Shown here one piece after another: positions 4,385-42,866 of a stretch of 43,620 bases of DNA. Every line of letters begins with the position of its first letter. Positions within the stretch are counted from its first letter, which is position 1. This stretch comes from a virus. Its lineage: Duplodnaviria; Heunggongvirae; Uroviricota; Caudoviricetes. A model generated the notes under the pieces. That model did no database searches. It was not told the DNA's origin and worked only from the letters and a program-made list of their open reading frames with translations. The stretch lies in the IMG/VR virus record IMGVR_UViG_3300045988_007060, positions 1 through 43,620 of that record. The stretch is one strand, 5' to 3'. The position numbers were made by a program, and so were the translations under genes.

Positions 4385-4404
4385 GTCAATTACTCCTTAG
4401 TTAG

Positions 4405-4433
4405 TTGATATGTGAATAGTACCATATTAATTA
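4405..4433. promoter_or_regulatory. operator copy in repressor-proximal intergenic region
   Basis: TGTGAATAGTACCATATTAA matches the operator motif; sits between the repressor start and the rightward promoter. Confidence 0.4.
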
Positions 4434-4448
4434 TTTTAGAAAAGCCCG

Positions 4449-4477
4449 TTGACACGTGAATAGTTCGCTATTATAGT
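4449..4477 (+). promoter_or_regulatory. sigma70-like early promoter with embedded operator
   Basis: TTGACA(4449-4454)-N17-TATAGT(4472-4477); spacer carries GTGAATAGTTCGCTATTAT dyad. Confidence 0.65.
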
Positions 4478-4508
4478 TAGCACATACCAAACGAGAGGAG
4501 AGAAACAA

Positions 4509-7108: not shown

Positions 7109-7112
7109 AGTG

Positions 7113-7141
7113 TTGACACCTGAATAGTTAGCTATTATAGT
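7113..7141 (+). promoter_or_regulatory. sigma70-like promoter with embedded operator
   Basis: TTGACA(7113-7118)-N17-TATAGT(7136-7141); spacer CCTGAATAGTTAGCTAT. Confidence 0.65.
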
Positions 7142-7195
7142 TCTAATCACTGGCCGGGCAGTTTCCCGGAGTAAACTTAAAAGCGAGAAATCAAG

Positions 7196-11335: not shown

Positions 11336-11616
11336 CCCCGGAGGGCAAGATTCAGAAATACGCAAAAGAACGATTCGAGGCCCTCGGTGGCCTCGTTCGT
11401 AAACTTTCCTACGAGGGGCGCTCCGGCGCTCCCGACCTGCTGGTAATTCTCCCCGGCGGCATCATCTGGTTCGTCGAGGTTAAGAAAGACGAAAACACGA
11501 AGCCAGACCCACACCAGTTACGCGAGCATGCGCGGATGTGTAAACGTGGTGCAAATGTTTTTGTCGTTGGCTCGTTCAAACAGGTTGACGACCTAATAGC
11601 GAACTATTATAGTTAA
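11332..11616 (+). CDS. VRR-NUC domain nuclease
   Basis: SGAPDLLVILPGGIIWFVEVKKD...GANVFVV resembles the VRR-NUC core. Confidence 0.7.
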   Translation: MTPEGKIQKYAKERFEALGGLVRKLSYEGRSGAPDLLVILPGGIIWFVEVKKDENTKPDPHQLREHARMCKRGANVFVVGSFKQVDDLIANYYS

Positions 11617-26589: not shown

Positions 26590-27760
26590 ACGCGTAACTA
26601 ATACGTTGAATTACGATAGATGATTGATATTGATTGCCTGTGGACTGTCCTTCAATGGACTGAGTGATTGACTCAGGTCCGCCAATCTCTGGCGTAACCG
26701 CCGTAAGCTCTGCGCGTTTCAAACTGAAAGACATAGCACCGTTTACCCCAGCCAGAATAGAGTTAATCTCTACCTGCTGTTCGTTGATAAACTTCTGAAT
26801 CATAGCCATGTCGTACAGTTTGCCGGAGATAGAGAATGTGTTAGCTGCGCGGCTACGTTCCACAAAGGCCACGTTAGTGTTGCCGAGTTCGAACTGTGCG
26901 GACGCGCTGTTGTCGTTAGTGATGGTCAGACTGTCGCAACGCAACGGCGTAGACCCATCGAACACAGAAACGTCAACCGAGGAGAACGGCTCGTCACCAA
27001 ACGTAACGGAAGAGAAGTCGGAACCGGACGGCTGCTCGGTGAGAATCTCCTGACTGCGACCGATGAACGGGAAGCTGCCAGTTACCATCGCATTAACTGC
27101 CTGTTCAACGGTAAAACCCGAAACTTCAACGCCTTTGGTCAGCGTATATACACTGGCCCCTCCGCACTGGCCTTTGTACCAGGTGAGAATAGAGAACGTC
27201 TTACATTGGTTACCGGTTTCCAGTTTATCTCCAGTTTTGGCCGCGGTAGTGACAGTCTCCGCGGTAAGAGTGTGCTGGATACCTGCACCTGTTACCGCCA
27301 GTGCCTCTACCGCAGTAACGATAAACGGCTTAGCGTTGTCGCCCGTTAAGTCGGTAAACGCAATCAGGTCGCCCACTTCAACGCCGTCGGTAATAAAGCT
27401 ACCATCAGCACGGGTGAACGTCTTACCCGCCGGTGCAACGGTAATCGATAACCCTGACAGAGAAGCCCCTGACTGCCACGTAGAGCCTAAAGCGCCAGCC
27501 AGCCAGTCGTCCTGGCTTTTCGAGCTAAGCTCAATTGCGTATTCCCCGCTAACCTGCCTGTTACCGGTGCGGATGGATGTAGTTTCACGGCTGCCGTCCA
27601 GTTCGTTGGAGGCCAGCGTGTCGCGGGTAACGGCGGGAACACCGCCTGTGTTGCGCAACGGCGACCAGACCGGGTTATCAGGTGTTACGCCCGGGGTCAC
27701 TTCCGCCACATAGAATTGCGCGGTATTCGCGCCCTTAAAAGGAGTTGTAGCCATATTCAC
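26588..27760 (-). CDS. major tail (tube) protein
   Basis: AAGAGG RBS; 390 aa; position between tail terminator-like genes and chaperones. Confidence 0.65.
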   Translation of the reverse strand: MNMATTPFKGANTAQFYVAEVTPGVTPDNPVWSPLRNTGGVPAVTRDTLASNELDGSRETTSIRTGNRQVSGEYAIELSSKSQDDWLAGALGSTWQSGASLSGLSITVAPAGKTFTRADGSFITDGVEVGDLIAFTDLTGDNAKPFIVTAVEALAVTGAGIQHTLTAETVTTAAKTGDKLETGNQCKTFSILTWYKGQCGGASVYTLTKGVEVSGFTVEQAVNAMVTGSFPFIGRSQEILTEQPSGSDFSSVTFGDEPFSSVDVSVFDGSTPLRCDSLTITNDNSASAQFELGNTNVAFVERSRAANTFSISGKLYDMAMIQKFINEQQVEINSILAGVNGAMSFSLKRAELTAVTPEIGGPESITQSIEGQSTGNQYQSSIVIQRISYA

Positions 27761-28173
27761 AGCCTCTTGGTGAATGCAATAAAGTTAATTGACAATGGTC
27801 GTTTGGCCCATCCGTTTTCTACAATCAGCGGCCCCAGGCTAACCGATTGAACCTCGGCGCAGATGTCGTTACGTGAAAATGACTTACCTGCTTTAAACGC
27901 CGTGTTAAGTAAGTCTGCCATTTTATTGATTGGCGCGCTACCCTTCACCGATGCGTAGTTAATGTCGACCTGATAGACACCAGCGCGTTGTTCTGTGAAG
28001 AACAAATCCGCCTGCTCGGTATCCGCCAGCAACATGTAACTCGCCAGATACGGTGTATCGGTAGACGTCGGCGCGTCGATATTTTCAAGCGCAACCTTGA
28101 TGCCGTTGGTGTTTCCGAAGGCTACCAGCGGAACATCAAACGCTTTTGTTAAGTCCTCAAAGTAGCCCATCAT
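27757..28173 (-). CDS. tail completion/terminator protein
   Basis: Coupled small gene upstream of major tail. Confidence 0.5.
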   Translation of the reverse strand: MMGYFEDLTKAFDVPLVAFGNTNGIKVALENIDAPTSTDTPYLASYMLLADTEQADLFFTEQRAGVYQVDINYASVKGSAPINKMADLLNTAFKAGKSFSRNDICAEVQSVSLGPLIVENGWAKRPLSINFIAFTKRL

Positions 28174-28565
28174 TTCACCTTGTTGGCTTCTTCGTTAATG
28201 AGTTGCTGGAAACGCGATATATTAGTCCTTACCATACCTTGTGGGGCCTGTTGCGACCAGCCATACTCAAGCCGCTGTATATACGGCAGGTTATTGGTAA
28301 GTGTGAACTCGCCCCAGTCTGTAGCGGTGTTTATAACCGCAGTAACACGCTGTATAGTAGCCGTCCCTTGCGGTGCGCCGTAGGTCGTAGTTTCCTGCGA
28401 CGGGGTACTGCCTGACGCAAACCAGTTATTTCTCGCACGACCAGTATCAACTGGCGTCGCCTTTATGATAGCGGAAAACAGCTTGATAGACACCTGGCGC
28501 ATAACCTTCTCGGGATTCTTCTTCGCCTTTTCCACGAACTTAGAGACATCAAGCGCGAAACTCAT
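28170..28565 (-). CDS. head-tail joining protein (HK97 gp10-like)
   Basis: PVDTGRARNNW signature; AGGTGAGAA RBS. Confidence 0.6.
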   Translation of the reverse strand: MSFALDVSKFVEKAKKNPEKVMRQVSIKLFSAIIKATPVDTGRARNNWFASGSTPSQETTTYGAPQGTATIQRVTAVINTATDWGEFTLTNNLPYIQRLEYGWSQQAPQGMVRTNISRFQQLINEEANKVK

Positions 28566-28921
28566 TTTCTCACCTGAATAAAGTAGGTCACGGCGTCGTC
28601 GTTAACCATCTTCTTCTCAATAGCTACGACAGACCATTGCTCGCCGCCGAATTGCACCTTGTCTTCCATCTTAGGAACGACACTGCAATCGGCTTTAACA
28701 ATCATGTCGCCCGCCCGAATCGTCGTACCGTTTATCAGCCCCGCGTTTACCGGAACCGGAACCGCCTTCAACGGCAACACTTCATTAGCAGACCAGACGT
28801 ACTCACCAAGAACTTCATCCCACACTTTCGAGCCAGCGCGAATCAGAGATACCGTGCTACCAAATTTGGTTAGCAGGCGCGTACCAACGCCTTGCATACG
28901 TTTACTGAAAGTGGTGCTCAT
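28562..28921 (-). CDS. head-tail connector protein
   Basis: GGAGG RBS before ATG 28921; ATGA coupling. Confidence 0.5.
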   Translation of the reverse strand: MSTTFSKRMQGVGTRLLTKFGSTVSLIRAGSKVWDEVLGEYVWSANEVLPLKAVPVPVNAGLINGTTIRAGDMIVKADCSVVPKMEDKVQFGGEQWSVVAIEKKMVNDDAVTYFIQVRK

Positions 28922-29535
28922 CCGGCGGCCTCCAGTCTCGAAATAACCAGTAGTGCTGACGGGGCGGTACCCCATGCGGTTACCGTAGCCGCTTGCGGGT
29001 ATACGCCGCCGAAGTTAGTTCCAGCACTATCCCGCATAATCTGAACGGCAAACGTCTGGCCCGCGGTTGGGTTAATAACAACGCGGGACTCAATCGGGAT
29101 TGTGGTGTCGGCACTTACCAGTTTAGTAGCTGCTGGCGAGCCGTACTGAGCGCCGTTCAGAAGAATACGCGATAACAGGATAGACGTGCCGCTAGCACCC
29201 GTGCGCCCAGCCTGTAACTTGATGCGAACGGCGTAGTTACCCGCGGTGTTGAACGTAACCAGCCCGGCGGCATTAATCATTACCGGGTCAGATGCGCTAC
29301 CCTGAGCAGAGCCGAAAGTTAACTGCAATGCTGTATCTACTGCGGTAGGCGCTTGTACCACGGTCGACGCGGCGCGGAGAACTTCAACCTCTTTCACCCC
29401 AGGAGTGGCGTAAATAGGCGAGTCCGCCATCTGTGTCATTACTTCACGCAATGCGGCGGGGGTAATAAGTCCGGTGGTGTTATCAGGAAGGTTAGCACCT
29501 ATAAGGGTAAACATCTCTGTCTTAGTCTTCGCCAT
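28918..29535 (-). CDS. structural protein, unknown role
   Basis: ORF within the head-tail joining cluster. Confidence 0.45.
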   Translation of the reverse strand: MAKTKTEMFTLIGANLPDNTTGLITPAALREVMTQMADSPIYATPGVKEVEVLRAASTVVQAPTAVDTALQLTFGSAQGSASDPVMINAAGLVTFNTAGNYAVRIKLQAGRTGASGTSILLSRILLNGAQYGSPAATKLVSADTTIPIESRVVINPTAGQTFAVQIMRDSAGTNFGGVYPQAATVTAWGTAPSALLVISRLEAAG

Positions 29536-29537
29536 TT

Positions 29538-30050
29538 TTAACCCCGGTACACGTTAAATGAGAAGCCATTGTTAAGTCCGCCACACAGTAGCGGGCGTAA
29601 AGCGTCGTCCGCAGCGGTGATCGAGGTCGTAGCACCACTGTTGCCGTTGTTGAAGTATGTCACCGTTACTGCACCCTCTACACGCTCCGTCTGCACGGAA
29701 CGACCGTCTGAGTTGGCGCGCACTTCGGTGCCTGCGCCATATGTAACGGCGGCGATTACCTGCGCAAGAATTATCTGCTTCGGAATGACATTGTTTGCTA
29801 CAGGGAACCCATTTAGCGTTACGCCGGTTCGCGGGTACGCAAGAGACTGCTCTGCGGATACACGACGACCGCACATCTGCGGTTCTGCAAGCCCGACATA
29901 AGTAGCGCCGTTGCGCAAGGCCACCCCTGCCGCGGTATCGTCTTCCGGCAGCTCAAGACCATAATTAGCCGCTAACGCGCGGGCGTCAGCCAGACTAACG
30001 TAACTGTCAGCGCCAGGTACTATTGACCCATCTTCCACGATTAGCGGCAT
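29538..30050 (-). CDS. head-tail adaptor/connector-like protein
   Basis: AGAGGAA RBS; N-terminal MPLIVEDGS..ADSYVSLADA pattern typical of phage connectors. Confidence 0.5.
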   Translation of the reverse strand: MPLIVEDGSIVPGADSYVSLADARALAANYGLELPEDDTAAGVALRNGATYVGLAEPQMCGRRVSAEQSLAYPRTGVTLNGFPVANNVIPKQIILAQVIAAVTYGAGTEVRANSDGRSVQTERVEGAVTVTYFNNGNSGATTSITAADDALRPLLCGGLNNGFSFNVYRG

Positions 30051-30053
30051 AAA

Positions 30054-30233
30054 TTATTCCTCTGACTTACGGCGACGACGCTTAACACCACCGCCGTTGT
30101 TGTGCGCTTCTTCGCTGTCCGGTTGGGTCGCAACCAGTTCACCCGCTTCTACAACACCGCGAACCGGCATCACCTGACCGTCGACAACATCAACGTGGGT
30201 GTACTTTTCGCGGATTACGTAATTATCTGCCAT
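30054..30233 (-). CDS. small protein with basic C-terminus (59 aa)
   Basis: AAGGAAAGG RBS; below the ORF-track threshold; C-terminal KRRRRK. Confidence 0.3.
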   Translation of the reverse strand: MADNYVIREKYTHVDVVDGQVMPVRGVVEAGELVATQPDSEEAHNNGGGVKRRRRKSEE

Positions 30234-30269
30234 GACCTTTCCTTATTACGGCCCCGAAGGGCCGTTGCA

Positions 30270-30623
30270 TTAAGATACAGTTACTACGGAGCTACTGGAG
30301 ATAATATTACCATACACATCGTGAACAACCACTTTATACGTACCAGAATCGGTAGATGCAACAGTGGTGGCTTTGGTGTACGTAGCCGCTGTAGCGCCTG
30401 AGATGGCGTTGTTATCCTTGAACCACTGATAGGAATAAGGCGCCAGCCCACCGGTCGCCACAACGGTAAGGGTTAACGCGTTAGGTGCAGTAACAGCGGT
30501 AGTAGCAGCAAGCGCGGTAGAAAAAGATGCTGGCGCGATATTTGCCATGTCGATTTCAACCTGGCCGTCGGCGGGAGAGTCGTCAGAAACACCGGTAATA
30601 CGACGTTTGATTACATCAACCAT
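30270..30623 (-). CDS. Ig-like domain protein (possible capsid decoration)
   Basis: AAGGGGA RBS; Ig-like signature YSYQWFKDNNAISGATAATYT..GTYKVVV. Confidence 0.55.
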   Translation of the reverse strand: MVDVIKRRITGVSDDSPADGQVEIDMANIAPASFSTALAATTAVTAPNALTLTVVATGGLAPYSYQWFKDNNAISGATAATYTKATTVASTDSGTYKVVVHDVYGNIISSSSVVTVS

Positions 30624-30633
30624 TTTAATCCCC

Positions 30634-30888
30634 TTATGATTCGATTACACCGGCGGCGCGGAGTTGCGCCAGAAGTGCGTTTAGTTTAGTACCTACGGCG
30701 TTAACCGCAGTCTGCGCGGACGTAGCAACTGCGGCGGCCTCTTCACCAGTAACAGTTTGCGAGCCGATGTCAGTTACCGCGGCGCCTTTCTTAACCAGCC
30801 CAGCGGTTTCTGCCGTTGCTTCTGGCACAACACTGCTGAAATCGGTGTTCTCAAGGCTGCGCGGTAAGCCCTTTCCGGTCTTAGCCAT
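30634..30888 (-). CDS. small head-associated protein
   Basis: AAGAGGT RBS; directly downstream of major capsid gene. Confidence 0.45.
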   Translation of the reverse strand: MAKTGKGLPRSLENTDFSSVVPEATAETAGLVKKGAAVTDIGSQTVTGEEAAAVATSAQTAVNAVGTKLNALLAQLRAAGVIES

Positions 30889-30902
30889 AATTTACCTCTT
30901 AG

Positions 30903-30931
30903 TAAATGAAAAGAGGGACCGAAGTCCCTCT
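30903..30931 (-). terminator. hairpin terminator/attenuator after major capsid gene
   Basis: AGAGGGAC-CGAA-GTCCCTCT with T-rich tract on - strand. Confidence 0.6.
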
Positions 30932-30947
30932 CGATTATAACTTAACC

Positions 30948-31997
30948 TTAAGCACCTACACCAGTTACCAGGAAGGCAATCGGTACGTGCTTACGGTCAA
31001 CCACGCGGTTCCAGTTGGAGGCGTTCGCCAGGTCCTGCCAGGAGGCAGAGCGTGGGGTAGTCTCGGTGCCGTTACCGGTGATTACCGCGCTGGTGAAGCT
31101 GTAGCCCAGAGGATGCAGCAACCAAGTCTTGCGGGTCCACAGGGTTTCAACGCCACCACCGTTACCACGAGACGCTTCACGCTCGTATTCCAGCGGGTTA
31201 GACGGATTGCCTTCACCGTAACCGATAGCACCGTTGCCGAAGATGATAGAGATGAACTTGCGGCTCGGGCCAGTTCCGACCACGGTCATGCTGTCATCAA
31301 CAATCACACGGTAACCCTGGTAGGTGGCGAACAGGGTGTCGTTGTCGGCGTCTTTGATGAAGTCGATAAGCTGCTGCTTACGCGCCTGAGCATAAACGAA
31401 GCTGTGCATCGCAATAGCGCCCAGCACTTCACCGCCGTTGTCCATCAGCGCATCACCCATAGTCTGGGTAGCGTCGATGAATGCGCCTGCGTCAAAGCCC
31501 AGAGTAGCAGACACGTCGATAACCATGTCGTTCTGCTCGTGGTAAGCATCGGTAGCGGCTACGTTGTCGTTGTACAGACCGAGCGCGGTAGCAATAAGAC
31601 GACGTTGTGCCTGGCGCTGCCAGAAGTTATCAAGACGAGAAGCCACGGATTGCAGCGGATTCTCGCTGGTCAGTTCAACCGTCAGGTCTGCCTGGCCAAA
31701 GCCTTCGTTCAGGTACGCAACGCGCGCCATCATCTCACCGGTCTGCACATTACGCGGGGTAGCGATGTCCTGGTATACGTCGTTCGAGTAGTTAGGCTCG
31801 ATAGAGGTGTCAATCGCTTTCCAGAAAGGAATATTAGCGACGTTGGACGGGCCTCGGGCAATCTCGGCAGCGTATGGAGTCGGGGTAAGAATACCAGACT
31901 GGAAGAACGCGGTTTTTTCTACCGGGTCCTCTGTCATATAAGACGCAAGGACCGGGATGTTGCCAGTTACGATATCGCCGATAGTGGTAATTGCCAT
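30948..31997 (-). CDS. major capsid protein
   Basis: GAGGAAA RBS; 349 aa; preceded by coiled-coil scaffold gene. Confidence 0.8.
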   Translation of the reverse strand: MAITTIGDIVTGNIPVLASYMTEDPVEKTAFFQSGILTPTPYAAEIARGPSNVANIPFWKAIDTSIEPNYSNDVYQDIATPRNVQTGEMMARVAYLNEGFGQADLTVELTSENPLQSVASRLDNFWQRQAQRRLIATALGLYNDNVAATDAYHEQNDMVIDVSATLGFDAGAFIDATQTMGDALMDNGGEVLGAIAMHSFVYAQARKQQLIDFIKDADNDTLFATYQGYRVIVDDSMTVVGTGPSRKFISIIFGNGAIGYGEGNPSNPLEYEREASRGNGGGVETLWTRKTWLLHPLGYSFTSAVITGNGTETTPRSASWQDLANASNWNRVVDRKHVPIAFLVTGVGA

Positions 31998-31999
31998 TA

Positions 32000-32701
32000 T
32001 TATTTCCTCAGGGCTTTAAGTTGCCGTTCAAATTCGGCAGGGTTCGATTTATACAGAGCCAAACGCTCCGATTCACTCATGTCTTTAAACGCTGGTGCGG
32101 CCCCGCCGCCTTTGCCACCGGAAGCCCCGCCGCCGGAAGCTGCATTTGCTTTAATCAAATGCGAAAACGCTTTGTGTTCGCGCAGGTATTTGCGGAACTG
32201 TTCAGGGTCAGTCGTGATTACGTTACCGTCTGCACCAACAAACTTAGTAACCACATCATCGCCTTCAAACTCAGTCCTAACGAACGGTGCAAGAATGTCC
32301 ACCGCTTCCGGGGTAATAAAGTCGCCCGCGAAAGAGCCTAGCACCGCTTTACGTTCGCTGCCGAGGATGCGCTCCGCCATTCTGGAGATGCGACCATCTT
32401 TCTCGGCTAGCACCGGGTCATACTGGCTACGAATCGTTTTTTCGAACTCGTCCATCTTACCAGCGGCTTTTAACGCCTCCTGATGCGCGCGCTGCCGTTC
32501 TTCTTCGGCTTCTTTTGCTTTGCGAGCGGCTTCTTTCTTCTCCGCCAGCAATGCTTCCTGATTGGCCTTAAGCCCGGCAACTTCTTTCTCAATCAGCACC
32601 TGAACTTCTTCAGCGGTGAACATTTTCGGCGCGTCACCGCCACCAGCTTTATCTTCTACCCCAGCTTCTTCCTGGAACGGATAACGTAAAAAACGATTCA
32701 T
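32000..32701 (-). CDS. scaffolding protein
   Basis: Highly charged coiled-coil (EKKEAARKAKEAEEERQRAHQEALKA), Gly-rich C-terminus, immediately upstream of capsid gene; start uncertain. Confidence 0.6.
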   Translation of the reverse strand: MNRFLRYPFQEEAGVEDKAGGGDAPKMFTAEEVQVLIEKEVAGLKANQEALLAEKKEAARKAKEAEEERQRAHQEALKAAGKMDEFEKTIRSQYDPVLAEKDGRISRMAERILGSERKAVLGSFAGDFITPEAVDILAPFVRTEFEGDDVVTKFVGADGNVITTDPEQFRKYLREHKAFSHLIKANAASGGGASGGKGGGAAPAFKDMSESERLALYKSNPAEFERQLKALRK

Positions 32702-32783
32702 AGTCAGTATGTCCCCTGGACGTTGGAATCCGGGCCACCCGGATTTACATGTCAAGAATAAATTATTCCAACATGCAAGGCAA

Positions 32784-33047
32784 CTATTCCAGAATATTCC
32801 TCACGTAATCCTGCAACATGAACACTTTCAGCCTCAGTTGCCGTACGCATTCTGCGTTCTGAACGTCGATAGCCAAATCCTCATCGGCGTCGCTACTTGG
32901 CGGGGCCAGTTTGCACGGCGACTGCATCATCGTCGTATCCGGGGATGGAATTGGCATTCGCGACGGCTCGGGACTTGAGCTGCACGCGCTCAGGGTCAAA
33001 AGTGCACACGCTGCGACCAGGCGTTTTAATGTACTTAACGACTTCAC
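32784..33047 (-). CDS. o-spanin (Rz1-like lipoprotein), overlapped with i-spanin
   Basis: Lipobox LLTLSAC, Pro-rich mature region; starts inside and extends past the i-spanin gene in another frame. Confidence 0.6.
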   Translation of the reverse strand: MKSLSTLKRLVAACALLTLSACSSSPEPSRMPIPSPDTTMMQSPCKLAPPSSDADEDLAIDVQNAECVRQLRLKVFMLQDYVRNILE

Positions 33048-33279
33048 GGGTAATCACCTCTGATTTCGTCTTGCCTTCGTTATCAGCGGCTGCGGCCTTC
33101 GATTCGTCCTGCTGCTGCCGTTGTGTTTTCTTTGCTAACTCAGCCTGCGCTTTCTGTTGTTGCTGCGAAACGAGATTCGCCCGGCCTTCGTTCCAGCCGA
33201 TGCGGTATTGATAGTAGCCGTGCGCATATAACAGGATGATGAAACATGCTCCCGCTACGACAGTTGCTTTAAGATTCAT
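32893..33279 (-). CDS. i-spanin (Rz-like)
   Basis: AAGGAG RBS; N-terminal TM segment then Q/K/A-rich coiled-coil periplasmic domain. Confidence 0.6.
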   Translation of the reverse strand: MNLKATVVAGACFIILLYAHGYYQYRIGWNEGRANLVSQQQQKAQAELAKKTQRQQQDESKAAAADNEGKTKSEVITREVVKYIKTPGRSVCTFDPERVQLKSRAVANANSIPGYDDDAVAVQTGPAK

Positions 33280-33389
33280 GTTTCTCCTTTCTCGATAAGT
33301 AAAGCCCCGCCTTAAAGCGGGGCGCTAGTCCTTATCATTTAAACATAGAAACGGCGTAATCTCAGTAAACCAGTTACTTTTTACACAAG

Positions 33390-33532
33390 CAATAGAGTAT
33401 GGCCCTTCCGAACGCGTCAGCGTAACTACACTCAGGACTTACGTCCCGCTCCGTTACCTGCCCGCGCCGCGGTCGCTTGTTCATACTTCACAAGCTCAGG
33501 TGGAGCTTAGCACATTTTTAGTGAAAAGTCAA
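33390..33532 (+). repeat. structured noncoding element, copy B
   Basis: Homologous to 803-946; hairpins GGAC-TTAC-GTCC (33435-33446) and AAGCTC-AGGTG-GAGCTT (33492-33508); followed by palindrome AACTATTCGAATAGTT (33531-33546). Confidence 0.6.
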
Positions 33533-33584
33533 CTATTCGAATAGTTTATTCCAACATTTACAATTGAGAGGAATAACTGGAATA

Positions 33585-33603
33585 ATCACAGGCACTAAAA
33601 AGC
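33585..33603 (-). terminator. rho-independent terminator for the terminase-portal-head transcript
   Basis: GCCCC-GGAA-GGGGC followed by TTTTT on - strand. Confidence 0.7.
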
Positions 33604-33621
33604 CCCTTCCGGGGCTTCGCA

Positions 33622-34083
33622 TTATTCTGGCTTAGTGACATTCGCCGCTTTACTCACGGCCTCTACACCACCGGCATCAGTAACTTTCACGAAGTATTCA
33701 CCTACCGCATTAACCGTCAGAGACAAAGCCTCTTCTGGCGCATTAACCACTTCCTTTCCGTCTTTGTACCAGGTCAGAGCATACGGTGCTTTACCCGCCT
33801 TAACTTCAACCGTGATTACCGCGCTTCCGTCTACCAGTTCAGCGTCCTGCGGTTGCGCAGAGAAATACACGTCGCCAGCGTCCGCCAGATACGGAATCTC
33901 ATAAAGCATACCCGCGGCCGGTAGCGCAATACCGGTTTTATCCGCAAACGGCATATCATCTACCGGTGTGCCAAGTACACTTTCGTCTTCAATAAACACC
34001 ACGTTCTCGCCGGAGCCAGACACGCGGGCGTACTGGACTACGCGACGCGACGGTACGTCAGTTACTTTGAAAAAGCCCATCAT
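33622..34083 (-). CDS. Ig-like domain protein
   Basis: Coupled to head morphogenesis gene; APYALTWYKDGKEV Ig-like motif. Confidence 0.45.
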   Translation of the reverse strand: MMGFFKVTDVPSRRVVQYARVSGSGENVVFIEDESVLGTPVDDMPFADKTGIALPAAGMLYEIPYLADAGDVYFSAQPQDAELVDGSAVITVEVKAGKAPYALTWYKDGKEVVNAPEEALSLTVNAVGEYFVKVTDAGGVEAVSKAANVTKPE

Positions 34084-35159
34084 TAATCCCCTTTCAGATA
34101 ATCAGCAACACGTTTATCGAGTTCCGCCATCTGCTTAAGTGTCAGCGGATTCCCGAAACCATCTACAGATATTACGCGAAACTCTTCCGGCGATATACCG
34201 CTGTTGCGGAAAATCTTACCGCGAACCGGGCCGAGAGCTTCATCAATAAACCATGCCGGTTGTTGTTTCAGGAACTCGTAGTAAGTGGTGTCCGCGCTTA
34301 CCTGAGTACCGCCGTCCGCACCCTTAGCCGCACGTTTTGCGCCTTTATCGAGGAAGTCGAACTCTGAACTGATTACCGGGGCCGTGCACGACCGACAATT
34401 CGGATGGGCTGGAGGCATCGGCCCTTTACCAATTTCCCATGTCATTCCGTCTCTGGCTCTGCAAATCGTACTGGTACGGCTGTCCAGCGTTGACACCCAC
34501 TCGTACTTCTCGATGATGTCGTCGTTCTGGCGGTACGTCTCGTTACGGGCTTCGTTGGACACGTGAGACAGCGCAGTACGTATTACCGTAGCTGCGTTGC
34601 GCTCAGAGATGTCGGCCAGTCCGCCCGCGCCGACTACGCTTTTAACAATCTGCCGTGTGGTTTGACCTTGTACGAAACCCATCTTAACGCCGGTTACAAG
34701 GCGCGCGACTTCTGTTTCACCCCAGCCGTCCATCAGCTTAGTGAAGTCAACAGGCTTGTCGTTCAACGCCAGAGGTTGAAACTCGGCGGCGGCCCACACT
34801 TGCTCGGCAGTAGGCGTAACAAATTCCCCATTTACGTTAGTGGTCAGAGTCTTTACGTTCCACTCAGCCTCGTACGCTGCCAGTTCTTTGAGGTCTTCTA
34901 TCAGCTTTGTCCGCCAGTCACCAGTAAGTCCTGTTAATGCTTCTTCAAGGTCGCGTAACAGTTTATTTAGTCGCGCGGTGCTTCGCCCGTCGTCACCGAA
35001 TAACAGCACCTGCCGTTTGATTTCGTCCCGCATTTCCTGAAGAAACGGCGCAAGGTCTTTCACTTCACCGGATGCGGTGCGTTGCAGCCATATCTGGTGG
35101 CTGATTAGGGATGTAAGTAAGCTCATAGATAAACCCTGTGGCGCTAAAGTTAATAGCAT
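34083..35159 (-). CDS. head morphogenesis protein (Mu F / SPP1 gp7-like)
   Basis: Position directly after portal; ~360 aa, typical size and order. Confidence 0.65.
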   Translation of the reverse strand: MLLTLAPQGLSMSLLTSLISHQIWLQRTASGEVKDLAPFLQEMRDEIKRQVLLFGDDGRSTARLNKLLRDLEEALTGLTGDWRTKLIEDLKELAAYEAEWNVKTLTTNVNGEFVTPTAEQVWAAAEFQPLALNDKPVDFTKLMDGWGETEVARLVTGVKMGFVQGQTTRQIVKSVVGAGGLADISERNAATVIRTALSHVSNEARNETYRQNDDIIEKYEWVSTLDSRTSTICRARDGMTWEIGKGPMPPAHPNCRSCTAPVISSEFDFLDKGAKRAAKGADGGTQVSADTTYYEFLKQQPAWFIDEALGPVRGKIFRNSGISPEEFRVISVDGFGNPLTLKQMAELDKRVADYLKGD

Positions 35160-36689: not shown

Positions 36690-37940
36690 TTAAAGTGCGA
36701 AAGTCACCGGGATGTTGATTACTGGTTTGACCACTGGCATCTCGTAAACTACAGGATAGCCGAGAGCATCCGCCATATGGTCGATGATGCCATCTTTGGA
36801 TGGCTCCCCGTTATCGTCGTATGCCTGCTGCTCCAGCGTCTTAGCTATCTCAGGGCATAAGTGGTCGTTAACCCACAGCTTACCTTTTTCCAGTGCGGTA
36901 TTCACGGCTAAAACACGGTCTTTAACCGGGGGGTTGGCGGATTTAGCGCGAACATCGAAGCCGGCCTGCTGGAGTAATGCAATATCGGAGATTGATGCCG
37001 AGTTGGTTTTGCGGTTCTTGCCGCTGGCGTCGGGATAAACGACGATGCGGTGGCCTTGCGACTTCCACTTCTCGGTAATTACGCGCACAGTATCTGGCGT
37101 ATCGAACAGTCCTTTCAGTTCTGCCACCGCGTGCCAGCCGTCTTTACGTTGCACATATACGGCGCTGGCGTTCTTAGTAACGTTGAAGTCCTGGCCGATG
37201 TACAGCGTGTCGCCCGGTTGAATTGTCTCTTTGCTGCGATGTTTGTGGCGGTCGTATGCGTAATACACGCTGCCGGAGGTCAGGTTGACGAACTCACCAT
37301 TCAGATACGCGTTAATCAGTTGCGCCGGGTAAGTCTCTGTCAGCGAGCTAATGTAATCCGGCGGCAGGAATCGCGCATTCTCGTGTGTTGAAGCCTGCAC
37401 CATTGAGTAACTCGGTGTCGGGTTATCTTTGAACTTGGCAAAGACGAACTTGAACCCTTCCGGCGTCGTGGTTACAGAGATGTGGTTAGTTACGCCAGGA
37501 ATAACAAGACGCATACGGGCAACAATTTTGTTCCATGCCAGCTCAGCTTTCTCACGACTCAATACATCGAGTTCATCCACGACCGCAGCCGCGATTTTGA
37601 AACCAACGATAGAACCTGGGTTATCCATCGAACGGCAGATAACCGTACCGAGCACCGTCTTACCACGAGTAACCACGACTTCTTTGTCGCCGGATTTAAC
37701 CAGCACATCGAGCCCGAGCAGGTTCGCCGCCTCCTCGAATGTCGGGTAGAAGATGTCGCGGATAGCTGGATAGGTCGGGCCGAAGTAGCCCAGGCGCGTA
37801 CCGGGGTGCTTGAGCATAAACGTAAGCAGGTCCAGACAGCCAACAAATGTCTTGCCGCTGCCGAAGCCACCGACATAGGCCTTGTATTTGTTATCGCAAT
37901 TCAGGAACAGTGCCTGCGGGGCGGATAGCTGAATACTCAT
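36690..37940 (-). CDS. terminase large subunit
   Basis: Walker A GGFGSGKT near N-terminus; C-terminal nuclease-like region; followed by portal. Confidence 0.85.
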   Translation of the reverse strand: MSIQLSAPQALFLNCDNKYKAYVGGFGSGKTFVGCLDLLTFMLKHPGTRLGYFGPTYPAIRDIFYPTFEEAANLLGLDVLVKSGDKEVVVTRGKTVLGTVICRSMDNPGSIVGFKIAAAVVDELDVLSREKAELAWNKIVARMRLVIPGVTNHISVTTTPEGFKFVFAKFKDNPTPSYSMVQASTHENARFLPPDYISSLTETYPAQLINAYLNGEFVNLTSGSVYYAYDRHKHRSKETIQPGDTLYIGQDFNVTKNASAVYVQRKDGWHAVAELKGLFDTPDTVRVITEKWKSQGHRIVVYPDASGKNRKTNSASISDIALLQQAGFDVRAKSANPPVKDRVLAVNTALEKGKLWVNDHLCPEIAKTLEQQAYDDNGEPSKDGIIDHMADALGYPVVYEMPVVKPVINIPVTFAL

Positions 37941-40551: not shown

Positions 40552-41040
40552 TCAACCTTTCACCGCGCGCCCAATAGCCTCCGCCTCTTGCCACGGTTTA
40601 CCGCCAAACAGTGCCAGGCGACCAGCGGTACGGCGACGCAGACCAAGTAATGGTTTACCGTTCTGGTTAATGAACAGCGACAGCTTGGTCCGTAACGTCG
40701 CGGTATCACCGGAGCGCAGTGCCTTACCGGTGCCGGTAGTAGCCGCGATAACACCCGCACCTGCGTTATAGACCAGGTCGCACACGGCGTCGAACTGCGC
40801 CTGTGTCAATGAATGGTGTGCTGCCGCATCAACCGCAGCTACGGCCTTAGCCATATCACGGTTCAGTAACAGGAGGCCTTGTCCTTGGGTGATGGTCTTG
40901 CCTGGAGTCACGTCCGGCCCGTAATGACCGTACCCAATAGTCAGGTACTTCTCGCTCGGTGTAGCACGATACGCAGTTCCACGGAATCCCTCAAATGCAG
41001 CGGTGAAATGCAACCCATTATCTGAAATATTTCGAGACAC
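40552..41040 (-). CDS. endolysin (T4-lysozyme-like muramidase)
   Basis: FEGFRGTAY..TIGYGH catalytic-region signature; GTG start at 41040 with GGAGG at 8-nt spacing. Confidence 0.8.
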   Translation of the reverse strand: MSRNISDNGLHFTAAFEGFRGTAYRATPSEKYLTIGYGHYGPDVTPGKTITQGQGLLLLNRDMAKAVAAVDAAAHHSLTQAQFDAVCDLVYNAGAGVIAATTGTGKALRSGDTATLRTKLSLFINQNGKPLLGLRRRTAGRLALFGGKPWQEAEAIGRAVKG

Positions 41041-41290
41041 GCTTATGTCCTCCGTATGACAGCCACGCCTGACGAATCTGACGCAGCGCAACTAATGTGA
41101 TTAATGTTTCAGGCAGCGTCGATGACATGCTGCCCTGTAACAGGTGGATACATCCGGCAGCGCAGACGATAGCGGTCAGGATATAGAGCACACGACCGAA
41201 TAACCCGTCGTCAACGCTGGGGTGATATACATTAAATAGCGATGTGCCCCCGATGGCCAGCATACCGCCGAACCAGAATAACTCATTCAT
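41018..41290 (-). CDS. second holin-like membrane protein (2 TM)
   Basis: Start ATG 41290 overlaps upstream stop; two hydrophobic helices; between holin and endolysin. Confidence 0.55.
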   Translation of the reverse strand: MNELFWFGGMLAIGGTSLFNVYHPSVDDGLFGRVLYILTAIVCAAGCIHLLQGSMSSTLPETLITLVALRQIRQAWLSYGGHKRVSKYFR

Positions 41291-41591
41291 CTGTGCCTCC
41301 TCGACGTGCGATGTATTCTCCGGCAACGATACTGGAGAGACGGGAATAGATAGGCATCCAGAGAACAGCGATGATAAAGCCCAGGCCAGCGATTTCACGG
41401 TCGCCCGTGATGCCAAACCATTGAGCTGCGAGAGGTGCACCAAATACGGCGCAGGTGAAGCCAGTTGCGATAAAGCAGAATCCGTCGATAGGGCCGGAAA
41501 TAACAGACTTATGTTGTCGTAGTCCGATAACCCCTCCGGCTAGCGCGGCGGCGAGAAGCCAGCCTGTCACTGTTTCAGTAAATTTATCCAA
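41283..41591 (-). CDS. holin
   Basis: ~100 aa with three hydrophobic segments, charged C-terminus, first gene of lysis cassette. Confidence 0.6.
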   Translation of the reverse strand: MDKFTETVTGWLLAAALAGGVIGLRQHKSVISGPIDGFCFIATGFTCAVFGAPLAAQWFGITGDREIAGLGFIIAVLWMPIYSRLSSIVAGEYIARRGGTDE

Positions 41592-42807: not shown

Positions 42808-42837
42808 CTCTGTCTCTCCCCTCGTTTGTGTAAATGA

Positions 42838-42866
42838 ATAGTAGCCTATTCTATCTTAGTGTGCAA
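42838..42866 (-). promoter_or_regulatory. sigma70-like promoter with operator
   Basis: TTGCAC(42866-42861)-N17-TACTAT(42843-42838); operator TGAATAGTAGCCTATTCT. Confidence 0.6.

Follow-up and report, generated by a model that had tools for sequence, protein, structure and literature searches.

An overlapped spanin pair, probably of the Jersey/K1G family, behind a structured leader RNA in the head module of a Kagunavirus-type phage

Does the position of a spanin gene pair among the head genes of a phage, kilobases away from the holin and endolysin genes, mean that the last step of lysis is under a transcriptional control of its own? The question is raised by positions 32,784 to 33,279 of the viral sequence IMGVR_UViG_3300045988_007060, a stretch of 43,620 nucleotides (in its whole length, the window), in which an initial annotation had recognized an i-spanin and an o-spanin gene and had concluded from their location that they are differently controlled. 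Our analysis supports, with a probability that we put at roughly 0.88, the identification of the locus as a two-component spanin of the Jersey/K1G overlapped family, whose genes lead a leader-headed unit within the head module. The direct observations concern gene structure, family membership, conservation, synteny, and the anatomy of the promoter and leader; lipidation, complex formation and a role in lysis would follow for the Jersey/K1G pair by analogy with Rz/Rz1 of phage lambda. Unless stated otherwise, the genes and elements given with coordinates lie on the minus strand.

The window represents the genome of a Kagunavirus-type siphophage. It is colinear with that of phage Sciku as a reversed circular permutation, and the 1.1-kb spanin region is 93-95.5% identical in nucleotide sequence to that of Kagunavirus phages (EF2-1, K1ind1-3, K1G, Sciku, Shashou, XY1 and others); for K1ind1, K1G, Sciku and others the identity of the locus is 94-95%. 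Read along the minus strand, copy A of a repeated element (802-946) is followed by small genes across the window ends, a protease gene, two holin genes and the endolysin gene; then by small genes, TerS, TerL, the portal, a gp7-like head protein and a Hoc-like protein; and finally by a terminator, copy B of the element, the spanins, the scaffold and the major capsid protein. Holins, endolysin, terminase, portal, head genes, spanins, scaffold and capsid all occupy this one strand, in one continuous leftward block.

The i-spanin gene (32893-33279) encodes a protein of 128 amino acids; the ORF list and the sequence place its start at an ATG, with the SD sequence AAGGAG at 33289-33284, 5 nt before it. 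The N-terminus, MNLKATVVAGACFIILLYA, is hydrophobic (Kyte-Doolittle 19-residue maximum of 1.76, at residues 1-19), and hydropathy together with an AF2 model indicates an N-terminal transmembrane anchor with a largely helical periplasmic remainder, which includes Cys92. The model, built from the single sequence, has a continuous helix at residues 3-63 (pLDDT 75-94) and a second one at residues 69-79; its C-terminal half is of low confidence. Two polyQ stretches, SQQQQK and RQQQD, are present, and the long helix contains polyQ. Among PHROGs, phrog_2536 (“Rz-like spanin”) matches the protein end to end (E=5e-57); the sole Pfam match at E<=0.1 was DUF2514, below its threshold (18.1 against a cutoff of 26), and the Pfam family of lambda Rz was not among the matches at that level. 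Hydropathy and the PHROG match thus bear out an Rz-like i-spanin with a transmembrane segment, whereas the coiled coil that had been ascribed to it was not demonstrated; the model gives one long helix.

The o-spanin gene (32784-33047) lies in the +1 frame and encodes 87 amino acids from a GTG start, with the SD sequence GAGGTGAT at 33060-33053. Its signal peptide, MKSLSTLKR-LVAACALLT-LSAC, combines three positive charges, a hydrophobic core and a lipobox ending in Cys22; the residue at +2 of this lipobox (MKSLSTLKRLVAACALLT-LSAC) is Ser, which is not one for inner-membrane retention. The mature chain of 66 amino acids contains 8 Pro, has a Pro-rich linker and a conserved C-terminal helix, and carries Cys at full-length positions 45 and 67, so that the description as a Pro-rich, Rz1-like lipoprotein with the lipobox LSAC was accurate. 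With Cys92 in the i-spanin and Cys45 and Cys67 in the o-spanin, both proteins have periplasmic cysteines available for intermolecular disulfides. The o-spanin matches phrog_5672 end to end (E=1.7e-28) and phrog_1267 (E=3.4e-20); at E<=0.1 no Pfam family was matched, that of lambda Rz1 included. For both spanins, then, PHROGs was the informative library, and Pfam and NCBIfam gave nothing above threshold.

The two genes share 155 nt (32893-33047), in which the end of the i-spanin and the start of the o-spanin, in its +1 frame, are read from the same DNA. Since the o-spanin extends 109 nt beyond the i-spanin stop, the architecture is “overlapped”, as the title of the initial annotation had it, and not “embedded”, as was said in its text. 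The +1 ORF with its lipobox is open in every one of 45 related loci, which encode 35 distinct protein pairs and in which the lipobox reads LSAC, LASC, LSGC, LNGC or FGC, both periplasmic cysteines of the o-spanin are conserved throughout, and the C-terminus is almost invariant (DEDLAxDVxNAECxRQLRLKVFxLQxYxRNILE). Pairwise diversity among the relatives at the three codon positions is 0.11/0.09/0.24 in the i frame of the part that belongs to the i-spanin only, and 0.08/0.023/0.227 in the o frame of the part downstream of the i-spanin stop; in the overlap itself it is the i frame that dominates, in keeping with an o-spanin whose signal peptide and linker are variable. Judged by comparative sequence analysis, the o-spanin is a coding gene and not a chance ORF, because its frame is intact in all relatives and variation in the o-only part is biased to third positions.

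The pair belongs to a family that has been described before. According to Kongari et al. (2018; PMC6139136), “Jersey” is the largest family of overlapped spanins, with 27 members including K1G, K1H and K1ind1-3; the overlap in phage Jersey is 155 bp, Cys45 and Cys67 of the o-spanin are invariant, and the i-spanin of the first subfamily has two polyQ stretches. Homology, the 155-nt overlap, both cysteines and both polyQ stretches are all found in the window pair, which thereby has every testable defining feature of the Jersey/K1G family. With the pairs of K1G (ADA82248/ADA82249) and Sciku (QEG06881/QEG06882) it shares homology, lengths of 128 and 87 amino acids, the overlap of 155 nt, the +1 frame, the GTG start, Cys45/Cys67, the polyQ and the position between the Hoc-like and scaffold genes; the few differences are substitutions (for example, the lipobox is LSAC here and LASC in Sciku-type members), and there is no structural difference. 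In tblastn searches the i-spanin was found in 663 phage records, with amino acid identities of 89-97% in Kagunavirus, 64-76% in Jerseyvirus and weaker similarity in Dhillonvirus; the values are 92.2% for K1G and 64.8% for Jerseyvirus jersey over 128 amino acids.

The 1.1-kb region matches 241 phage records, many of which annotate the pair as “i-spanin/o-spanin” or “Rz-like spanin”. The Sciku record (Texas A&M Center for Phage Technology) names i-spanin and o-spanin by similarity to the “overlapping” spanins of K1G, and the RefSeq record of K1ind1 also labels both genes in this way. The ORFs at these coordinates, the spanin PHROGs, the transmembrane segment and lipobox, and the annotated relatives all agree with the identification as a two-component spanin pair; both the pair and its layout are already known from annotated and published genomes and are not new. 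The announcement paper for Sciku does not mention lysis genes, and a literature search found no experimental paper on the Jersey/K1G spanin family.

By analogy, the window pair would work like lambda Rz/Rz1 and P2 LysB/LysC while lying outside their sequence families. In LysB/LysC, the prototype of the overlapped architecture, the o-spanin gene likewise has its start within the i-spanin gene, in the +1 frame, and its end past the i-spanin stop, and predicted topology and role are the same; sequence similarity, however, is not significant (the NCBIfam model NF038368, P2_Rz1, for P2 LysC scored 17.6 bits on the o-spanin, against a curated cutoff of 27). The P2 genes sit in a lysis cassette beside holin and endolysin. 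Lambda Rz/Rz1 likewise consists of an inner-membrane type II protein with a helical periplasmic domain and a Pro-rich outer-membrane lipoprotein, with an activity gated by peptidoglycan removal (PMC6139136), but Rz1 is fully embedded in Rz, the two genes are the last members of an S-R-Rz/Rz1 cassette, and the window proteins match neither an Rz nor an Rz1 family in Pfam at E<=0.1. The likeness to T4 PseT.3/PseT.2 is one of location, these spanin genes also being away from holin (t) and endolysin (e), and T4 is the textbook precedent for such unlinked spanins (PMC6139136); the T4 genes differ in having a separated architecture, unrelated sequences and a location that is not in a head-gene cluster.

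In the mechanism that we propose, the N-terminal helix of the i-spanin would anchor in the inner membrane, with its helical, polyQ-containing domain projecting into the periplasm, and the o-spanin, translated from the internal GTG in the +1 frame, would be exported and receive its lipid at Cys22; with Ser and not Asp at +2, it would then be sorted to the outer membrane. The two proteins would bind through their C-terminal parts to form complexes that span the periplasm through the peptidoglycan mesh and that would build up during late gene expression. In the established spanin model such complexes accumulate harmlessly and are set free only by the endolysin's removal of the peptidoglycan (PMC6139136); the spanins of the window would act only when this layer has been destroyed by holin and endolysin, and would complete lysis by fusing or disrupting the outer membrane. 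The unit that encodes them would have a sigma70-like promoter and a structured leader RNA at its head and would extend into the scaffold and major capsid protein genes, and the spanins would presumably be expressed late, together with these head genes.

How unusual is it for these genes to be where they are? The holin-holin-endolysin cassette is at 40552-41591, about 8 kb away, as had been noted, and is spanned by a class I-like holin/antiholin of 102 amino acids (41283-41591; phrog_2359, E=3.4e-29), a second holin starting with MNELFW (41018-41290; phrog_2508, E=3.6e-33, matched by residues 52-141 of a long ORF) and an endolysin of the phage lysozyme type (40552-41040; PF00959, E=2.2e-27), which probably starts with VSRNISDNG and, translated from there, has no SAR-type hydrophobic segment at its N-terminus. 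The i-spanin start is 7.3 kb from the endolysin stop and 8.3 kb from the start of the first holin. Directly upstream of the spanin unit is the gene for a Hoc-like Ig-domain head decoration protein (33622-34083; phrog_3945, E=1.2e-84); downstream follow the head scaffolding protein (32000-32701, with its ATG at 32701; phrog_206, E=1.5e-55, and the Sciku annotation) and the major capsid protein (30948-31997, from the ORF list and the annotation of Sciku and K1ind1). The earlier statement that the spanins lead the unit after the terminator and copy B, ahead of scaffold and capsid in the head-morphogenesis module, is therefore right.

The same arrangement, between a Hoc-like or minor (gp7-like) head gene and the scaffold, is seen in Sciku, K1ind1, the Jerseyvirus AG11 and Hafnia phage TS33, and in the Dhillonvirus Oekolampad the pair directly follows the minor capsid protein; no second spanin candidate is annotated beside the holin-endolysin cassette in the relatives. 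Genome papers have listed spanins apart from holin and endolysin (PMC7203180; PMC9825357), as in phage Golestan, with holins ORF66 and ORF67, endolysin ORF68 and spanins ORF7 and ORF8 (PMC7203180), and a Kagunavirus genome paper already remarks on the distance. Spanins inside the head module are the ancestral and normal layout for Guernseyvirinae and Dhillonvirus.

A canonical intrinsic terminator follows the Hoc-like gene at 33597-33617 (AAGCCCC-GGAA-GGGGCTT and TTT; fold of -14.4 kcal/mol), and the Sciku record annotates a terminator at the equivalent site; the initial annotation was right about its existence and misplaced it, at 33585-33603. Transcription of the spanin unit would begin at the sigma70-like promoter P_B (33504-33532), with TTGACT, a spacer of 17 nt and an extended -10 element (TGc-TAAGCT); this form recurs at copy A, and the Jerseyvirus version is TAGACT-17-TGtTACGCT. 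A perfect palindrome, CTATTCGAATAG (33533-33544), abuts the -35 element of P_B, and GGAATAAACTATTC lies at 33539-33552. These upstream palindromes (CTATTCGAATAG and GGAATA..TATTC) are missing at P_A, the promoter of copy A, and the spacers of the strong early promoters of the opposite strand again contain GAATAG/CTATT half-sites, which hints at a shared DNA-binding regulator. Generic promoter and terminator scans returned as many sites as shuffled controls and missed the canonical terminator at 33597-33617; they were used for coordinates only.

At the other end of the unit, the 82-nt gap between spanins and scaffold contains, besides an SD sequence, two further elements within 32727-32773, namely an invariant palindrome, GGAATAATTTATTC (32756-32769), and a covarying hairpin (32727-32745). 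The palindrome resembles the GGAATA..TATTC motif that borders the -35 element of P_B. A sigma70 promoter in this gap was considered and rejected, as the TTGACA there is unconserved and a -10 element is absent. Scaffold and capsid are probably co-transcribed with the spanins, a view for which the basis is the lack of a conserved promoter in this gap.

What had been called copy B of a repeat is a real element, whose nature can now be specified: it is a promoter together with a structured RNA, at 33389-33532. The leader RNA of copy B (33389-33497) would begin at the start site of P_B and is made up of a short hairpin, P1, a long irregular hairpin, P2, and, 3' of P2, a UUCGGAAGGGCC segment that is conserved and single-stranded; some 65 nt of linker separate the leader from a GC-rich hairpin with a weak U tract, UUUACUUAUC (33304-33325; -17.2 kcal/mol), which lies 24 nt before the i-spanin ATG, is kept in Sciku by a compensatory C-G to A-T change, and is a possible partial terminator or stabilizer. 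Copy A is the same promoter-RNA-hairpin unit in the same orientation (promoter 918-946, leader RNA 802-912, GC hairpin 697-717) and stands at the head of a block, on the same strand, that continues past the window ends and takes in the lysis cassette and packaging genes.

A covariance model built from copy B found exactly two copies in the window, at 141 bits (B) and 80 bits (A), two in Sciku and, ahead of the spanins, one in the whole genome of AG11, the one Jerseyvirus genome that was searched in full; about 50 IMG/VR contigs of 40-45 kb also contain the element. MAFFT and RNAalifold on the raw variants recovered the basal stem only, owing to indels, and were replaced by an alignment based on the covariance model. 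All leader variants fold into a short P1 and a long irregular P2; in the model-based alignment of 30 distinct sequences, 97.5% of the cells are paired and 17 of the 29 pairs show compensatory changes, against at most 5 in shifted-register controls. Two pairs are invariant G-U, which favours a structure in RNA transcribed in the late-gene sense over one in the DNA. Of 181 phage records, 179 have a promoter and leader with at least 95% identity, and in FSL SP-101 these are 96.8% identical next to an i-spanin protein with just 75.8% identity. We consider it very probable, from these patterns of covariation and conservation, that a structured leader RNA exists.

The GenBank records examined leave the leader without annotation or place short “hypothetical protein” ORFs on top of it. 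An ORF of 36 amino acids at 33374-33484, “hypothetical” in some relatives, was rejected as a gene because no ORF is conserved across the leader variants. No credible Rfam 15 match was obtained, either at the gathering threshold on the whole window or in E-value mode on both copies. A pattern scan of bacterial genomes gave at least 120 matches, in GC-rich genomes, of which 80 were tested with the covariance model and one was upheld; it lies on a contig of 6 kb from a “Bacillota” MAG, and this contig is probably phage DNA that was mis-binned. The scan thus yielded no evidence for the element outside these phages. The leader RNA, for which neither Rfam nor the GenBank records examined gave a prior description, is the one part of the locus that looks new.

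Candidate roles for the leader are a cis-acting antiterminator like HK022 put, a stabilizing 5' leader, and an attenuator or small RNA that ends at the hairpin. The likeness to HK022 putL/putR is one of architecture only: in both cases a genome has two copies that resemble one another, and each copy directly follows a sigma70 promoter and has two bulged stem-loops (PMC9378689). The leader is longer (about 110 nt versus about 70), its P1 is short, and there is a single copy in AG11, the one Jerseyvirus searched in full; moreover, its covariance model found no match in the HK022 immunity region (20000-35000), which includes the put regions, and homology to putL/putR is accordingly not indicated. 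That the leader would act in cis as put does, by letting host RNA polymerase read through the intrinsic terminators of the late region, we regard as rather a long shot, argued from this resemblance.

Against the reading as a spanin pair led by a promoter and leader, several others have to be weighed. That the two ORFs are membrane-associated accessory proteins of head assembly would agree with their place inside the head module and with curated Pfam and NCBIfam matches that are all below threshold, but it leaves aside the strong spanin PHROG matches of both proteins, the presence of the defining signals (a type II transmembrane segment, and a lipobox with outer-membrane sorting) and the lack, in the relatives, of any other annotated spanin candidate beside the holin-endolysin cassette; a chance overlap is contradicted by the conservation and coding signature of the +1 ORF, and we hold either version to be extremely improbable. 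Less remote, and still unlikely in our judgement, is a programme for the last lysis step that is functionally distinct from that of holin and endolysin. The spanins are indeed preceded by the canonical terminator (33597-33617) and by a separate promoter, P_B, with palindromes that the copy A promoter lacks, and AG11, the sole Jerseyvirus searched whole, has only the spanin-proximal leader copy. Yet all of the genes are on one strand in one contiguous late-type block, in this genome both blocks have homologous core promoters and leader RNAs, unlinked spanins are common and have been described before, as in T4, and it is peptidoglycan removal, not the time of expression, that gates spanins (PMC6139136). 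The proposal of a different transcriptional control for the last lysis step is not supported, mainly on account of this last point, since with gating after translation the timing of transcription within the late period matters little. If anything, the lysis-cassette and spanin blocks of this genome would appear to be under coordinated rather than separate control, because they share one strand and have the same promoter and leader at their heads; the differing upstream palindromes at P_A and P_B leave some room for differential regulation.

A somewhat better case, though one that we still think doubtful, can be made for a small RNA gene of about 200 nt that is complete in promoter, leader and hairpin, with the spanins expressed by low, attenuated read-through past 33304-33325, where the hairpin could terminate much of the transcription from P_B. 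This hairpin is the top-listed terminator-like site in the regional scan and is maintained by the compensatory change in Sciku, the whole unit is duplicated from promoter through hairpin and has no conserved ORF inside, and a low level would suit a catalytic membrane-fusion protein set before highly expressed head genes. The U tract, however, is weak here and missing after the equivalent hairpins of Jerseyvirus and copy A, and scaffold and capsid, which need high expression and have no conserved promoter of their own, would need read-through too. We retain the reading of the locus as a Jersey/K1G spanin pair that leads a leader-headed unit.

As far as the spanins are concerned, the existing annotation proves correct and the genome layout is one already known; that spanin genes are unlinked calls for no special explanation, as the cell wall physically restrains the proteins. 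It should also be borne in mind that automatic gene callers often overlook the overlapping o-spanin and place short, non-conserved ORFs over adjacent non-coding RNA. The leader RNA deserves separate follow-up, since it heads late units of a group of virulent phages that are widely isolated and often proposed for therapy. Should it prove to be an antiterminator, RNA-only processive antiterminators would have a second, unrelated family, and both halves of the lysis system would be tied to one control element. The leader could explain how late genes in these phages run on the host polymerase.

A structured leader RNA of ~110 nt is encoded twice on the minus strand of the window, upstream of the spanin genes (copy B; 33389-33497) and at the head of the lysis/packaging block (copy A; 802-912). 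Two copies are likewise present in the Kagunavirus Sciku and one in the Jerseyvirus AG11, and in three of the numbered loci compared the element lies at L001 5608-5716, L006 19539-19648 and L007 5806-5901. Immediately upstream of it is a sigma70-like promoter, and its layout comprises a hairpin, P1, then a long bulged hairpin, P2, followed by a conserved UUCGGAAGGGCC. Paired cells account for 97.5% of the alignment, with compensatory pairs at 17/29, and the leader RNA is better conserved than the adjoining genes. Comparison with Rfam gave no match; we consider it a previously undescribed structured element.

In relatives, short “hypothetical protein” ORFs have been placed over this RNA, as in Sciku (CPT_Sciku_007, L001 5621-5731; CPT_Sciku_053, 37531-37638 of the record); the ORF in the window is at 33374-33484 (minus strand). 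One of the annotated ORFs runs antisense to the RNA, across copy A. Because no ORF was found to be conserved among the leader RNA variants, these are probably annotation artefacts.

Among 80 bacterial-genome hits tested with the covariance model, the sole contig carrying the leader RNA was JAEWLW010000073.1 (2136-2246; 71 bits), a 6.2-kb contig from a “Bacillota bacterium” MAG, which is probably Kagunavirus-like phage DNA mis-binned into that assembly.

Strong early promoters form a family at 597-627, 4404-4429, 4448-4478, 7112-7142, 11584-11614 (+) and 42826-42851, with the form TTGACA, 17 nt, TATAGT and a spacer holding the inverted repeat GAATAGT..CTATTA. The “phage promoters” motif of fBC-Eco01, tgAATAGTa-ccTATTat-T, is this same motif (PMC9825357), and the family looks like operator-bearing sigma70 promoters rather than phage-polymerase promoters. 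Within 597-946, the plus-strand early-type promoter at 597-627 faces copy A, which is itself transcribed from a minus-strand promoter at 946-918; the two transcripts would be mutually antisense across ~300 nt.

The terminator at 33597-33617 (minus strand) has the textbook form, GCCCC-GGAA-GGGGC then TTTTT, and is annotated in Sciku; since the consensus terminator scan missed it, negatives from that scan are unreliable. The minus-strand hairpin AATCCGGG-TGG-CCCGGATT (32727-32745), which follows the o-spanin stop and precedes the scaffold SD, lacks a U tract and is preserved through compensatory changes in AG11 and the Hafnia phage TS33; a role in processing or stability is possible. The palindrome GGAATA(N3)TATTC occurs on the minus strand directly upstream of the spanin-unit promoter (33533-33552), whose -35 is adjoined by the perfect palindrome CTATTCGAATAG, and at a second site between the o-spanin and scaffold genes (32756-32769), unchanged from Kagunavirus through TS33. 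All of these palindromes are probably bound by a phage regulator.
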